64,000 nt of DNA, taken from assembly GCA_016187225.1 (NCBI GenBank), contig JACPKC010000004.1, positions 17,004-81,003 on the forward strand. Reading direction: 5' to 3'. A program made the translations under genes and the position numbers. Source of the stretch: Candidatus Berkelbacteria bacterium. Its GTDB lineage: Bacteria > Patescibacteriota > UBA1384 > JACPKC01. The notes under the pieces were generated by a model. The model made no database searches, was not told the origin of the DNA, and saw only the letters and a list, made by a program, of their open reading frames with translations. Below, piece after piece: positions 9,554-64,000 of this stretch. Within the stretch, counting starts at the first letter, position 1, and every line of letters begins with the position of its first letter.

Positions 9554-9569
9554 GCGCAAGAGGAGGGGT

Positions 9570-10397
9570 GTGACGATTTGTGAGCTTGAGAAGCAAGCGA
9601 ACGCAATTCGGCAAGACATTATTAAGATGCTTGTCAGAGCCGGTTCTGGTCACTCGGCCGGCCCGCTTGGGATGGCCGATGTTTTTACCGCACTTTATTT
9701 CAATTCACTCCATCATAAGCCAAAACAGCCAACTTGGTCGGAGCGCGATCGAGTCGTGCTTTCAAACGGTCATATCTGTCCGGTGCTCTACGCCACTCTT
9801 GCCCATGCGGGTTATTTCCCAAAAAAAGAACTGTTCACCTTACGCGCTTTTGGCACACGACTTCAAGGACATCCGCATCGCGGAACTTTGCCGGGAATTG
9901 AAACTACCTCGGGGCCGCTTGGCTCGGGTCTCTCGCAGGCCGCCGGAATGGCGCTTGCCGGTCGGATGGACGCCGCTCGCTGGCGAGTTTATTGTTTGAT
10001 GTCTGACGGTGAGCACGACGCTGGCAACACCTGGGAGGCAGTAATGTTTGCTGGCAAGGAAAAATTCTCGAATCTGACGGCAATTTTGGATCGGAATAAT
10101 ATTCAAATCGATGGTTTTACAGAAGATGTTATGCCGCTTGAGCCACTCGCGGAAAAATACCGCGCCTTCGGTTGGCAAGTCTTGGAAACCGATGGGCATA
10201 ATATCAAGGCGATTATCGATTCAGTTAATCAGGCGCGTTCAACTTTTGAGCAACCAACGCTGATTCTTGCGCATACGATTCCGGGCAAGGGTGTGAGTTT
10301 TATGGAGCAGAGATTTGAGTGGCATGGCAAGTCGCCAAATAAAATCGAAGCCCAAAAAGCCCTCCATGAGCTCCGCACCTTGCAAGGTAAAATTTGA
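9570..10397 (+). CDS. tkt: transketolase, N-terminal (TPP-binding) subunit
   Basis: GSGHSAGPLGMADVF and GHPH motifs. GTG start 3 nt after AGGAGG. The track ORF extends back to a TTG at 9540. Confidence 0.8.
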   Translation: MTICELEKQANAIRQDIIKMLVRAGSGHSAGPLGMADVFTALYFNSLHHKPKQPTWSERDRVVLSNGHICPVLYATLAHAGYFPKKELFTLRAFGTRLQGHPHRGTLPGIETTSGPLGSGLSQAAGMALAGRMDAARWRVYCLMSDGEHDAGNTWEAVMFAGKEKFSNLTAILDRNNIQIDGFTEDVMPLEPLAEKYRAFGWQVLETDGHNIKAIIDSVNQARSTFEQPTLILAHTIPGKGVSFMEQRFEWHGKSPNKIEAQKALHELRTLQGKI

Positions 10398-20045: not shown

Positions 20046-20065
20046 CTTTCAATAATTATAGCAAG

Positions 20066-20109
20066 AAAAAGGACCAGACTACCGAGGGGGAATTATTGTA
20101 GCCTGGTCC
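20066..20109 (-). terminator. intrinsic terminator-like hairpin oriented on the minus strand, 20 nt upstream of the manA ATG
   Basis: On the minus strand a 10-bp stem (GGACCAGGCU/AGUCUGGUCC) is followed by UUUUU. Confidence 0.5.
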
Positions 20110-20340
20110 TGTGAGAAACTTTAGTTCTTGGAGCCGTTGGCCAGCTCCCGAACTATTTCCTCGAACCCTTTCGGCATGCGCAGAAAGGGTTCGAGGTGGA
20201 TGAGTTTACTGCCGCGTGTGCCAACGCGACAGTCGCGGCTCCTTTCGGGCGCGCCGGATACGATCGTCGCGGCGCTTGCCCCACCCGAAGCCGGGTCCGT
20301 TCGTGGGGACCTCTTTCCCAGAGGAGTTTCCACAAAAAAA
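20110..20340 (-). other. GC-rich, palindrome-dense structured element containing an RBS-led 77-aa ORF (20121..20354, minus)
   Basis: Roughly 65% GC against a roughly 50% background. All six frames are open. It holds a 14-bp perfect inverted repeat (20159-20196) and the palindrome CGCGACAGTCGCG. AAGGAGGAG lies 5 nt upstream of the minus-strand ATG. Confidence 0.4.
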
Positions 20341-20625
20341 TGAGAAAAATTCATTTATCTCCTCCTTGGAAAGTTCCGCCACGGTATGAAGACGAACCTG
20401 ATCGAGAGTTTCGTGTTGTTTCCTCTCGATCTGGTTCGACACAACCTTCTTTCTGATCAAGATTTTTCCTCCCTTTTATCTAAATTGAGAACGGCGGACC
20501 GTTCCCACGAACACGAATACTACACACTTTTTCCACAGTGGCAAGTCTCAAGCTATGTTAAACTGACATTTGTGCCTAAATGGGTGCAAACTTTTATCAA
20601 TATAAGCTTTCATAGAGGAGGGGGA

Positions 20626-34349: not shown

Positions 34350-34424
34350 TGGTGGCTCCGGGAGGATTCGAACCTCCGACCCACGGCTTATGATGCCGTT
34401 GCTCTACCGCTGAGCTACAGAGCC
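34350..34424 (-). tRNA. tRNA-Met (anticodon CAU), elongator-like
   Basis: A 75-nt cloverleaf with a G1-C72 pair, a TTCGAAT T-loop, anticodon loop AUCAUAA, and an encoded CCA. It starts 4 nt upstream of the ftsH start codon. Confidence 0.85.
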
Positions 34425-34442
34425 AAGCAGAGCTTTTTAATT

Positions 34443-34516
34443 TGGGCGCGGGGCCAGGATTTGCACCTGGGACTGAGGCTTATGAGACCTCCATGTTGCT
34501 ACTACACTACCCCGCA
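34443..34516 (-). tRNA. atypical tRNA with CAU anticodon (Met/fMet/Ile2 candidate)
   Basis: A 74-nt cloverleaf with a U1.G72 pair, C73, a T-loop reading UGCAAAU (G at position 55), no G19 in the D-loop, anticodon loop CUCAUAA, and an encoded CCA. Confidence 0.55.
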
Positions 34517-38464: not shown

Positions 38465-38540
38465 AGGCCCGTAGCTTAGTGGTTAGAGCAGTCGGCTTAT
38501 ATCCGACCGGTCACAGGTTCGAATCCTGTCGGGCCTACCA
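38465..38540 (+). tRNA. tRNA-Ile (anticodon UAU)
   Basis: A 76-nt canonical cloverleaf. Acceptor AGGCCCG/CGGGCCU with A73 and CCA, anticodon stem GUCGG/CCGAC, loop CUUAUAU, and a TTCGAAT T-loop. Confidence 0.75.
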
Positions 38541-52294: not shown

Positions 52295-52313
52295 GTTTTA
52301 CCAAGACTGAAAA

Positions 52314-52337
52314 AGCGCCTCGATGAGGCGCTTTTTC
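52314..52337 (+). terminator. intrinsic terminator after groEL
   Basis: An 8-bp stem AGCGCCUC/GAGGCGCU with a GAU loop, followed by UUUUU. Confidence 0.6.
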
Positions 52338-56880: not shown

Positions 56881-57984
56881 TTAGACATTGAATCTAAACT
56901 CAATGACATCGCCATCGGCAACCACATAGTCTCGGCCCTCTTGTCGCAATTTACCGGCGCTTTGGGCGCCATCCTTGCCGTGGTAGGTGAGAAAGTCGGC
57001 ACAACTAATCACCTCGGCTTTGATGAAACCGCGTTCGAAATCAGTATGAATCACCCCAGCCGCTTGAGGCGCGGTTGCGTCTCGCTGGATTGTCCAGGCT
57101 CGCACTTCTTTCGGTCCGGCCGTAAAGTAGGTGATTAAGCCGAGCAGGGCAAAGGCCTCACGGATTAGGCGATCCAAGCCTCGTTCCTTGAAGCCGAGAC
57201 TGGCTAGATATTCAATCTGTTCGTTTTCGTTCAGCGTTGAGAGTTCGGCTTCGATCTTGGCCGAGATTGGAACCAATGGTGTGCTGGCAAATAAGCTCGG
57301 CTCGGCCTCAATCAATTCCTTGATTCGCTCCCCTGTTTTGTCAAGTTTTGTTTCTGACACATTGAGCACACACAGCATAGCTTTGGCAGTTAAAAGTCGA
57401 AATGATTTGAGGCGTGCACTTTCTGCTTGCGAAAGAGGGATCGAACGGACTCCCCTGCCCTGCTCGACTTCGGTTTTGATTCGCTTGAGGAGAGATTGCA
57501 AAGTAGTCGCTTCAGGATCACGAGCTTTAATCTTCCCTTCCAGATTCGCGAGAGCGTGTTCAAGAGTCTCCAAATCTTTGAGCGCCAATTCGGTTTGAAG
57601 AATGTGAATGTCTTCAAGCGGGTCGACGACACCTGTCACATGCACAACGTCTGGATCGGTAAAATCCCGCACCACGAGAGCAATCGCATCAACGTCGCGG
57701 ATATTGGCCAGAAATTTATTGCCCAAACCTTCGCCTTGATGAGCGCCGGCAACGAGTCCGGCAATGTCCACAAAAGTCACCGTTGCTGGCACAATTCGCG
57801 TTGGCTGAACAAGCTCGGCAAGTTTTTGGAGTCGATTATCGGGCAAATCCACAATCCCGATGTTTGGATTGATCGTGGTAAAAGGAAAATTACTTGCTTG
57901 CGCGTTCTGTTTTTTCGTGAGCGCGTTAAAAAGCGTTGATTTACCAACGTTAGGGGGTCCAACAATCCCAATCGTGAGTGACAT
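56881..57984 (-). CDS. ychF: redox-regulated ATPase YchF (Obg-family GTPase)
   Basis: [19 protein letters not shown]1 motif and a C-terminal TGS domain. ATG at 57984. Confidence 0.9.
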
Positions 57985-58078
57985 GGGCGAAATTGTACTG
58001 CATCCTCTCCTGAATAGAAAGGGTCTGGTAAAAGAAAAGCCCGGCGGCTCCATTGAGGAGCTCTTGCCGGGTGTGTGA

Positions 58079-58378
58079 TTAGGCGGAGCGCAAGTTGGCT
58101 CGCAGGGCGATCATCGAGGTTTTTAGCCTTTCGATGTTTTCGCCCCGCCTACCTGGCCTTTGATTGAGAAGTTCGATCGAAATCTCGAGCATCCCAAGCA
58201 ATTTGGCGCGTTGCAGTCTTGCAAGCTCGCGCCGGATGCGAAAGAAAGCCTTGAGCTTGCCTTCCACATCCTTGACGACTGCGCCGATTTTATCATGGGC
58301 GCAGATATCGGGTTCGCTCAACTCCCAACACTTTGTGTGAATGGAGTCGATGAGATTGCGAAAATCTTCATCGCTCAC
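58079..58378 (-). CDS. hypothetical small helical protein (99 aa)
   Basis: GTG start 8 nt after a GAAGGAAGG ribosome-binding site. It is coupled 3 nt after the stop of the upstream ORF. Confidence 0.4.
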   Translation of the reverse strand: MSDEDFRNLIDSIHTKCWELSEPDICAHDKIGAVVKDVEGKLKAFFRIRRELARLQRAKLLGMLEISIELLNQRPGRRGENIERLKTSMIALRANLRSA

Positions 58379-58381
58379 TTT

Positions 58382-58720
58382 TTACCGCCTTCCTTCGCAT
58401 AGTCCGCCTTGGTTGAGGTAGGCGTAGAGAAGATCGAGCTCGCGGAGCAGAGCGCGATTTTGCTCGCGGTAGCTTGACTGATCGAGCGCCTCGAGCGCCT
58501 CGGTGATGTGTGTTCGAATGACCTTTTCTCGATCACTGCCATGTGGCGCGTCGACCGAAAGTAGCAATAACTCATTTATTGCATTTCTCATCTCGTACTC
58601 GCCCGCGCCTTGCCCGGTTATTATCCGGTTGATCATGGCGTGGAAGGAGGCGAATACGAGTTCGCGCTTCCGTTCCTTTGCGAGACTTAGGTCAGAACGC
58701 CTCTTATTAGATTCCTCCAT
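58382..58720 (-). CDS. hypothetical small protein (112 aa)
   Basis: ATG with an AAGGGGA ribosome-binding site. It contains an R-x6-H element (REKVIRTH), which I read only weakly as HEPN-like. Confidence 0.4.
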   Translation of the reverse strand: MEESNKRRSDLSLAKERKRELVFASFHAMINRIITGQGAGEYEMRNAINELLLLSVDAPHGSDREKVIRTHITEALEALDQSSYREQNRALLRELDLLYAYLNQGGLCEGRR

Positions 58721-59106
58721 TTTTCCATCATCCCCTTCTTTTTCGGTCTCGGTTTTTTCTCGTTATGTTGTTGATAGAACTCTCCAAGCGCCTCAAAAAG
58801 CGCTCGGAAAGTCCACTGCGAACAGCGGCCGATCGGACTCCGCACCTTCCCGATCCAACGGCGCAGAGCTGGTAACTCTTGTTCTTCGGCGCGCTCGAAG
58901 AGTAACATCACCGCGCCCTCGATCCGACCGGCTTGATAAGCGCTCTCCCGGATCGAACCCGGCTCGCGGATGAGCGTTTCCATCAGCCGTTCAATTTTAT
59001 CTTGGCATTCTTTGGACGTATGAATTGTAAAAACCTCCTCTTCTTTACTCAACTCAATATAGGCCGAGCAATCAGGCAGAGTAGTCCAAACTTCCGCACG
59101 GGTCAA
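58687..59106 (-). CDS. hypothetical protein (139 aa as tracked; the start is uncertain)
   Basis: Only a TTG start is available at 59106 and there is no clear ribosome-binding site. An internal ATG sits at residue 42. It lies 38 nt downstream of xerC. Confidence 0.25.
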   Translation of the reverse strand: MTRAEVWTTLPDCSAYIELSKEEEVFTIHTSKECQDKIERLMETLIREPGSIRESAYQAGRIEGAVMLLFERAEEQELPALRRWIGKVRSPIGRCSQWTFRALFEALGEFYQQHNEKKPRPKKKGMMEKWRNLIRGVLT

Positions 59107-59143
59107 TGCATTAAGGCTTTTACATTACTTTTTCAAGAGTTTC

Positions 59144-60034
59144 TTACTTACTGTTTATCCTTTTCCGACCATGGAAAGCTTTGTGGACCTCGTGGAGATG
59201 CTGATCGGTGAGATGAGTGTACCGCTGAGTTGTGGCCACCGAGGAATGACCCAGTAGCGCCTGGACTGATCTCAAATCAGCCCCGGATCGGAGTAAATCT
59301 GTTCCGAAAGAATGGCGCAATGTATGCGGAGTAACGTGTTCAGCCAAACCGGCTTGGGCCGCGTAGCCTTGAATTAAACGCTGGATAGTTCTTGGAGTGA
59401 GTCGCCCCCCGCTTTCTCCGTTCCGCTTGATCCTTACAAAAAGCGCCGGATCATCATCTGTTCGCGCGGCGACATATGTTTTAATGGCGCTTTGAGCGCC
59501 AGGAGAGAGAAAGACGACTCGGCGTTTTCTGCCCTTCCCCACCACACTCACCTCTTCCCTATTTTCCACTTCTTGGCGGTCGAGCCGCACGAGTTCGGCC
59601 ACACGCAAACCGGTTGAAAAGAGCGTCTCCAGAATCGCTTGGTCTCTCTTTCCTTTTTGGACGCGAAGATTAGGCGCGGCTAAGAGTTTGGCGAGATGCT
59701 CTCTGTCCAAAAAATTTACTTCAATCGTTTCGGCGCCCGGTAGGTCAATTCTTTCGCTTGAAAGAGTTCGGATATTTTGTTTTGCCAGCCAACCCAAGAG
59801 CGCTCTTAGGGCAACGAGGTGGTAATTCTGTGTCGCGCGACTCAATTCACGTTCGTTTAATTTTAGCCGATAGGTTCGAACATGCTCGTCGGTGAGTGCG
59901 CCGACATTTATGTTATGTGTGAAGTCTAGAAAACGGCCTAAATAGTGCTCATAGTTTTCAATTGTTCGCGGTGCTAGGCCTTGTGCGAGTTCGCAATCTT
60001 CTAAAAAACGTCGAATTGCTTGAGAAAGTTGCAT
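59144..60034 (-). CDS. xerC: tyrosine recombinase XerC/XerD
   Basis: Active-site R..HTLRHSFGTDLLRSGADLRSVQALLGH..Y. Start taken at MQLSQAIRRFLE; the track ORF starts 30 nt further upstream. Confidence 0.85.
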   Translation of the reverse strand: MQLSQAIRRFLEDCELAQGLAPRTIENYEHYLGRFLDFTHNINVGALTDEHVRTYRLKLNERELSRATQNYHLVALRALLGWLAKQNIRTLSSERIDLPGAETIEVNFLDREHLAKLLAAPNLRVQKGKRDQAILETLFSTGLRVAELVRLDRQEVENREEVSVVGKGRKRRVVFLSPGAQSAIKTYVAARTDDDPALFVRIKRNGESGGRLTPRTIQRLIQGYAAQAGLAEHVTPHTLRHSFGTDLLRSGADLRSVQALLGHSSVATTQRYTHLTDQHLHEVHKAFHGRKRINSK

Positions 60035-60066
60035 CGCGGGTATTATAGCATGTACCATACTCATAT

Positions 60067-63320: not shown

Positions 63321-64000
63321 TGAACATCTCGCAACTTTTGATTCCCTTCTTTGCCGCCGTTTTAGTTTCGCTTAGCCTCACCCCATTAGTTAGGAAGCTT
63401 GCTCTTATTTGGGGCGCAATTGCCAAACCCGGCGGGCGACATATTCATGTTCGCACCACACCTAAACTCGGTGGTTTGGCGATCATCGGCAGTTTTTTCA
63501 CGGTCGTAGTTTATATACTCATAACCAATCCAAGCCAGCTTCATTTCGTCGACATGGCCATTCTCGGTCTTGATGCAAATCTTTTTGGAGTGCTCGCGGG
63601 CGCTTTGATTCTCGTTGCACTGGGTGTGGTTGATGACAAATACGATCTGCCGCCGCGTGTTAAACTTCTCTTTCAAATGATCGCAACTCTCACAGTAGTT
63701 CTCTTTGGCGTAAAAATTTGGTGGGTGAGTCATCCATTCGGTGGCCCCGATATTCTCCTTGGCAACTGGACATATCTTATCGTCCCGCTTTGGCTTCTGG
63801 CAATGATCAATGTGATGAATTGGTTCGATGGCTTGGATGGCTTGACTTCGGGTCTCTCCATTATCGCGAGCCTTGCCATTGCTTTCCTTGCCCTGGAGCC
63901 GTTTGTCGATCAACCCGCAACCGCTCTTCTGGCGATCATTCTCGCTGGCGCTACTTTGGGTTTTCTACCCTTCAACTGGAACCCAGCCTCGATTTTTCTT
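63321..64000 (+). CDS. polyprenyl-phosphate sugar-1-phosphate transferase, WecA/MraY family (3' end outside the window)
   Basis: AKPGGRHIHVRTTPKLGGLAI and NVMNWFDGLDGL motifs with multiple TMs. The track does not list it because it has no stop within the window. Confidence 0.7.

Follow-up and report, generated by a model that had tools for sequence, protein, structure and literature searches.

The HU and IHF proteins (PF00216), accessory DNA-bending proteins of tyrosine recombinases with an alpha/beta fold and a beta-ribbon arm, carry an intercalating proline in that arm. XafT (DUF3653) is described as a small Xer activation factor carried by TLC-phi, a Xer-exploiting mobile element of the integrative kind (IMEX) (PMC6744903, PMC9226527). 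Small open reading frames (ORFs) beside a tyrosine recombinase gene also recall integron cassettes and, when tightly coupled, toxin-antitoxin operons, and short domain-less ORFs lie among the core genes of candidate phyla radiation (CPR) bacteria. Here we analyse three such frames, ORFs A, B and C, that lie in tandem on the minus strand between a gene for an Xer-like tyrosine recombinase (xerC) and ychF, at positions 58079-59143 of a 64,000-nt stretch of Candidatus Berkelbacteria bacterium contig JACPKC010000004.1 (hereafter the window). The chances seem to us evenly balanced that A, B and C are genuine small proteins of helical structure, restricted to this lineage and expressed together with the Xer-type recombinase.

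In the model that we favour, orfC, orfB and orfA would form the promoter-distal part of a four-gene minus-strand unit, xerC-orfC-orfB-orfA, which a strong intrinsic terminator would close just ahead of a separate ychF promoter. The three ORFs would share a transcript with the recombinase gene, and translation of B and of A would be coupled to the upstream cistron. Their products are predicted to be small, soluble, Arg/Glu/Leu-rich and mostly alpha-helical, with isoelectric points (pI) of 9.4 for A and 6.3 and 8.8 for the other two, and would not be enzymes but act by binding partners, either proteins or nucleic acids.

Layout of the locus and its probable transcription unit

The original prediction had placed three tandem ORFs here, with a 3-nt gap between B and A (58379-58381) and a 34-nt overlap between C and B (58687-58720); all coordinates and sizes were verified (Table 1), and the ribosome-binding strings quoted for A and B are real Shine-Dalgarno (SD)-like motifs at the distances listed there. 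The ORFs were already known, being listed by the NCBI Prokaryotic Genome Annotation Pipeline (PGAP) as hypothetical proteins. At NCBI the DNA of the window belongs to a contig of 82.6 kb from a metagenome-assembled genome of a Candidatus Berkelbacteria bacterium, and the locus is base-for-base identical in the Logan assemblies SRR12113420 and SRR12113424. Gene calls differ in the starts: NCBI begins ORF B at ATG 58636, giving 84 aa, and ORF C at the TTG, giving 139 aa, whereas one Logan gene call gives 98 aa for ORF C, the length expected from an alternative start at ATG 58983. No SD-like motif stands ahead of either candidate start of ORF C, TTG 59106 or ATG 58983; the start is uncertain, and the doubt voiced earlier about this ORF was fair. 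A feature absent from the original prediction is that ORFs A and B share one reading frame, with only a TAA and one codon between them at the junction …E-G-R-R-TAA-AAA-GTG-S-D-E-D….

The flanking genes are those that had been named. YchF (MBI2589609.1, 367 aa in PGAP) matches TIGR00092 with 441 bits against a cutoff of 279. The recombinase, which PGAP names 'tyrosine-type recombinase/integrase', is matched over its full length by the XerC (232 bits, cutoff 335), XerD (220, cutoff 330) and XerA (206, cutoff 220) models, in every case under the equivalog cutoff, and by the integron-integrase model TIGR02249 with 119.7 bits against a cutoff of 265.

Table 1. Features of the locus, in window coordinates
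Feature	Position	Strand	Details
Intrinsic terminator	58029-58071	-	hairpin CCCGGC…GCCGGG at 58040-58071, then CUUUUCUUUU; 8 nt past the stop of ORF A
ORF A	58079-58378	-	99 aa; GTG start 58378; GenBank MBI2589610.1, HYW32_01065, hypothetical protein
SD-like motif of ORF A	58388-58396	-	GAAGGAAGG; 9 nt before the GTG of A, within the 3' end of ORF B
ORF B	58382-58720	-	112 aa; ATG start 58720; GenBank MBI2589611.1, HYW32_01070, hypothetical protein
SD-like motif of ORF B	58731-58737	-	AAGGGGA; 10 nt before the ATG of B, within the 3' end of ORF C
ORF C	58687-59106	-	139 aa; TTG start 59106; GenBank MBI2589612.1, HYW32_01075, hypothetical protein
Promoter-like TTGAGT-17-TACAAT	59024-59052	-	within the first 41 codons of ORF C; from promoter scan
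Xer-like tyrosine recombinase	59144-60034	-	296 aa; MBI2589613.1; upstream neighbour of ORF C

The hairpin of the terminator past ORF A folds at -21.1 kcal/mol (z = -3.4), a value equalled by only one of 200 shuffles, and a terminator scan found the same site. In contrast, the 37-nt gap between the recombinase stop and ORF C contains no hairpin, and its folding energy of -4.6 kcal/mol is not better than that of shuffles. Because a terminator lies directly past A and none of its kind separates xerC from C, the simplest reading is that xerC-C-B-A form one transcription unit, of which the recombinase gene, with a TATAAT hexamer ending 8 nt ahead of its ATG at 60034, is likely the first. Since the SD-like motifs of B and A lie inside the end of the preceding ORF, the layout suits translational coupling of both. 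As an internal promoter for the ATG 58983 start, the promoter-like sequence inside ORF C is a weak candidate; the scan of the region returned two sites where 2.7 are expected, so that this site is at chance level.

The terminator also bears on the start of ychF. The longest-ORF start, ATG 58053 (390 aa), falls in the loop of the terminator hairpin, and a TACAAT hexamer ends 7 nt upstream of the next candidate, ATG 57984 (367 aa). On these grounds ychF probably begins at 57984 with a promoter of its own, and its mRNA is possibly leaderless or has a very short leader.

Hexamers resembling a -10 box (TATAAT) end only 8-11 nt before several starts of the window, among them those of xerC (GCTATAATACCCGCG-ATG; 60034-60066) and the start codons 20045 (-), 37585 (-) and 48137 (+). 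An SD-like motif precedes only about 20-30% of the long ORFs of the window, and many transcripts of this genome may be leaderless or carry a short leader.

Coding evidence, predicted folds and homology

None of the three ORFs is interrupted by a stop in its own frame. Over the same length of sequence, each of the remaining five frames contains 1-8 stops (3-8 for the ORF C stretch, 4-6 for the ORF B stretch). NCBI PGAP and the gene calls on the two Logan assemblies each called the ORFs independently, which supports the favoured reading, and GC1 exceeds GC2 in the ORFs (G+C content at the first and second codon positions), as it does in real genes. Their codon statistics are nevertheless borderline. 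A coding score from a 3-periodic third-order Markov model, trained on 46 long ORFs of the window, was 0.061 +/- 0.033 for in-frame 110-codon chunks of real genes and -0.072 +/- 0.044 for shadow ORFs, with a maximum of -0.002 for the latter. ORF C scores 0.023, at the low end of the real genes and equal to xerC, whereas A (-0.004) and B (0.000) fall between the two classes. Expressed as Gaussian likelihood ratios of a real gene versus a shadow ORF, these values amount to 0.6 for A, 0.9 for B and 6.9 for C.

These values bring in the most serious alternative, namely that the ORFs are non-functional, being frames left open by chance or as relics within a transcribed 3' region or spacer reaching from xerC to the terminator and held open by a composition low in TA and rich in Arg and Glu codons. 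The scores of A and B are indeed no better than those of the best shadow ORFs, and for A the codon-aligned antisense frame reaches as good a score as the sense frame, which favours this alternative. On both strands the interval has few TA dinucleotides and few stop trinucleotides, and it has plus-strand ORFs of 80, 92 and 156 aa as well. In 132 of 5000 trials (2.6%, p about 0.03), shuffles that preserve dinucleotide composition (first-order Markov) match the interval in one-strand ORF coverage. No homologue was found among 15 billion proteins, and the window has other stretches without coding signal, for example at about 9554-10314. Against a non-functional interval stand the three consecutive stop-free frames themselves, the correctly spaced SD-like motifs at the starts of B and A, the end of ORF A 8 nt ahead of a terminator and the high confidence with which A is folded. 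Moreover, 1.06 kb of non-coding DNA would be the longest such stretch in an otherwise compact window. On balance we regard this alternative as unlikely, though less so than the other alternatives.

Single-sequence AlphaFold2 (AF2) modelling of ORF A gave an all-helical structure (H3-20, H25-73, H80-98) with a predicted local distance difference test (pLDDT) score of 83.7, so that the fold is confidently predicted to be a generic three-helix hairpin. Fold searches with this model returned generic helical matches only, with no HU/IHF structure among them. The corresponding model of ORF C (pLDDT 49.6) was uninformative.

All four Cys and His residues of A cluster in the pattern H14-x2-C17-x8-C26-x-H28 (58295-58339, -), an arrangement noticed post hoc with a permutation p of about 0.009. 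The cluster lies where predicted helices 1 and 2 meet, and may constitute a metal-binding site.

Profile searches with Pfam, NCBIfam, PADLOC and PHROGs gave no match to A, B or C at E <= 1, in agreement with the earlier statement that no recognisable domain is present, and Rfam returned nothing across the interval. A word-indexed search of 5.8 billion protein clusters retrieved only the self-match of each ORF, and an exhaustive phmmer search of 1.84 billion representatives, which took in B and A through a fused B-X-KV-A query, retrieved two self entries only. Thus the ORFs are not conserved core genes; the original prediction would have been undone had they been universally conserved core genes with known function. 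Nothing was found for ORF C in the JGI metagenome contigs, and no relative of A, B or C in IMG/VR viral contigs, GenBank phages or PLSDB plasmids. The three are not paralogous to one another and have no further copies within the window.

A YchF-based scan of GTDB genomes with non-conserved 8-mers reached only distant phyla, and a degenerate YchF motif pattern gave 91 stretches, the best with a YchF only 53% identical, none of which has a match to XerC, A, B or C nearby. Even YchF, S6 and the PAP2 protein of the source organism have no cluster mates at 90% identity, and the lineage is effectively sampled once; since YchF and S6 themselves lack such mates, it may just be that sampling has missed the relatives of small proteins that evolve fast. 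Judged by these searches, A, B and C are true orphans at current sampling.

Alternative readings of the interval

The arrangement of the ORFs could also be that of one gene of about 350 aa, recently broken into C, B and A. A frameshift in or near the A-run GGAAAAATGG would then split C from B, and a nonsense TAA would split B from A. The common frame of B and A, the unusual length of the 34-nt C/B overlap for a genuine gene overlap and the weak coding statistics all agree with such a history. So do the facts that the B frame is open for 14 codons upstream of its ATG, both frames thus being open over 76 nt as after a frameshift, and that the NCBI and Logan gene calls differ on the starts of B and C. 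Against it, the valid start and correctly spaced SD-like motif that follow each break would hardly arise by accident, the breaks between the ORFs are not assembly errors, as three assemblies agree on the sequence, ORF A alone gives a compact and confident model, and the fused B-X-KV-A query found no intact relative of either part among the 1.84 billion representatives. We consider a broken gene improbable.

The run GGAAAAATGG (58716-58725, -) sits where the C frame and the B frame (offset -1) are both open, and a single-tRNA -1 slip on A-AAA at this site would yield the C-B fusion …GMMEK-MEESNK…, an idea that is wholly speculative.

The original prediction had raised addiction, defence or cassette-like cargo as what the ORFs might be, and a horizontally acquired small module beside the recombinase, either toxin-antitoxin or addiction-like or a novel defence set, can be argued for on several grounds. 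Small size (99-139 aa), tight coupling and SD-led starts are traits that the ORFs have in common with type II or tripartite toxin-antitoxin operons; the orphan status of the ORFs suits fast-evolving conflict genes, and a tyrosine recombinase adjoins. The combined G+C content at third codon positions (GC3) of the three ORFs is 0.595, compared to 0.476 +/- 0.049 in trusted genes, and is matched by only 4% of gene chunks of equal length, which puts it no further than the top end of native values. Those chunks come, however, from glmS, and a DEAD-box helicase fragment has a GC3 higher still; because these housekeeping genes of the window are at least as GC3-rich, a high GC3 is not proof of foreign origin. 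The neighbouring recombinase is of full-length Xer type and its GC3 is native.

Searches for signatures of mobility or defence gave the acquired-module view no positive support. Against PADLOC-DB 2.0, 0 families matched A, B or C at E <= 1, and neither Pfam, NCBIfam nor PHROGs supplied a match; phage, plasmid, IMG/VR and JGI contigs held no relatives. Direct or inverted repeats flanking 58079-59143, which had been suggested as att-like marks to look for, were limited to chance-level 12-30-mers. A dif or pseudo-dif site, taken as an imperfect palindrome with 11-bp arms and a 6-8 bp spacer, is absent from the gaps flanking the ORFs at a threshold of at least 9/11 arm matches, nor did five dif sequences, which may differ from the dif of this lineage, match well there. 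No tRNA lies within 19 kb of the interval, and there is no room for attC sites because of the 3-nt B/A gap and the 34-nt C/B overlap. The one clue that had been offered, an R-x6-H element in the middle protein, is present in ORF B as R64-x6-H71, but an R-x4-6-H occurs in 65% of shuffles of B, so that this HEPN-like motif is no more than chance predicts and informs in neither direction. An interpretation as cargo, defence or cassette thus finds no support in the sequence, and an acquired module is as improbable as a broken gene.

A last candidate arose from a phmmer search against PDB sequences, in which residues 27-83 of A aligned to residues 11-68 of Escherichia coli IHF-alpha (E = 0.0024, 21 bits), the two sharing NQRPGR letter for letter. 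None of 2000 shuffles went beyond 8.9 bits, and hhalign of A against a five-member HU/IHF alignment gave a probability of 48% (pairwise E = 2e-4). This match, the basic pI of 9.4 and the place of A within a recombinase operon would fit a highly diverged HU/IHF DNA-bending protein serving as architectural cofactor of the neighbouring recombinase. Yet Pfam Bac_DNA_binding (PF00216) does not match A even at E <= 10, IHF-beta, HU-alpha, HU-beta and HBsu score 0-3 bits, and a hidden Markov model of the five HU/IHF members scores 9.1 bits, with the best shuffle at 7.4. In the alignments A reads GMLEI and RPGRR---GEN, lacking the GFGxF and RNPxTG invariants, with N-P-x-T deleted and no proline in the arm segment. 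The segment aligned to IHF 'beta' structure is predicted to be helical with pLDDT > 90, and neither the second arm strand nor the C-terminal part has any sequence left to it. As the confident helical model argues against the similarity, the fold searches bring up no HU/IHF structure, the profile match fails and the invariants are missing, the relationship of A to IHF-alpha is most likely spurious, and we hold the cofactor reading to be very improbable.

We return to real, lineage-restricted proteins as the favoured reading. Several points weigh against it: the coding scores of A and B, the synonymous codon use of ORF B, which lies under that of every trusted gene, the missing SD-like motif and uncertain start of ORF C, and the lack of conservation support, as no homologues of A, B or C were found. 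Likewise, both Logan contigs have the very sequence of the window and offer no single-nucleotide polymorphisms for a ratio of nonsynonymous to synonymous substitution rates (dN/dS). Finally, what ties A, B and C to recombinase function is adjacency only.

The likeliest functional guess, with operon position as its only basis, is a role of A, B and C as accessory or regulatory partners of the Xer-type recombinase, which is itself improbable. In a more specific and still less probable form, the three would be an unseen Xer accessory module of small helical factors co-expressed from the xerC operon, in which one protein would combine a degenerate IHF-like basic motif with a possible H-x2-C-x8-C-x-H metal site, and the proteins would assemble or regulate the recombination complex, replacing or supplementing control of the FtsK, IHF or XafT type. 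Otherwise the ORFs would be unrelated, fast-evolving passengers whose relatives are undetectable in a lineage sampled once.

Elsewhere in the window, ARAGORN detected a tRNA-Ile with anticodon TAT (UAU), uncommon in bacteria, at 38465-38540 (+), and two tRNA-Met(CAT) genes lie at 34350-34516. Two stretches, at about 9554-10314 and about 20046-20385, show no convincing coding signal, with scores of -0.07 to -0.11 for their ORFs, and are not matched by Rfam; a palindrome with 10/11 arm matches, GAACCCTTTCGGCATGCGCAGAAAGGGTTC, lies in the second at 20163-20192. A perfect palindrome with 11-bp arms, GAAAAAGCGCCTCGATGAGGCGCTTTTTC, at 52309-52337, 15 nt past the groEL stop, is probably a bidirectional intrinsic terminator. 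A 175-aa ORF at 63386-63913 (-), with a coding score of -0.032 and no Pfam match, may be another orphan or a spurious ORF.

Comparison with known systems

Integron cassettes resemble the locus in being promoterless small ORFs beside a tyrosine recombinase gene. In integrons, however, the integrase gene is divergent from the array, whereas A, B and C run in the direction of the recombinase gene, downstream of it, leave no space for attC and have no suitable inverted repeats at the locus. The recombinase, moreover, reaches 120 bits on the integron-integrase model (cutoff 265), against 232 bits on XerC.

Type II and tripartite toxin-antitoxin systems, including HEPN-MNT, likewise consist of two or three coupled ORFs of about 100 aa, and ORF B has its R-x6-H; the difference is that no toxin-antitoxin or defence profile is matched. 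For ORF B in particular, no HEPN match was obtained in Pfam, NCBIfam or PADLOC at E <= 1, and an MNT-like G-S…D-x-D motif was not visible when the ORFs neighbouring B were read directly.

With the HU/IHF proteins (PF00216) ORF A shares its size of 99 aa, its basic character, its place beside a recombinase gene and the 21-bit match, but it differs in lacking their profile match, invariants and structural match, and in being predicted all-helical where they are alpha/beta with a beta-ribbon arm. XafT is the nearest precedent, as a small non-enzymatic protein controlling Xer recombination, and its gene is described as part of a mobile element with dif as integration site (PMC6744903, PMC9226527), whereas the present locus has no dif-like site or flanking repeat. 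A literature search on Xer and dif in CPR bacteria brought up nothing relevant. Neither DUF3653 nor any other Pfam family matches A, B or C, which have no sequence similarity to XafT.

As they stand, the three ORFs look like ordinary lineage-specific hypothetical genes, and since domain-less singleton ORFs are common in CPR genomes, the finding in itself matters little. The useful outcomes are the probable ychF start at 57984, the likely terminator-bounded xerC-C-B-A unit, the shared frame of A and B, and a defence, toxin-antitoxin or cassette reading found to be unsupported. Should the operon link to the recombinase prove functional, it would point to unrecognised Xer control factors in bacteria with minimal genomes. 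In any case, the closest likeness is to the orphan hypothetical proteins of CPR/Patescibacteria, which are equally short and domain-less, have no homologue outside the source genome and lie among core genes; the sole distinction of A, B and C is that they would belong to one terminator-bounded unit with an Xer-type recombinase gene.

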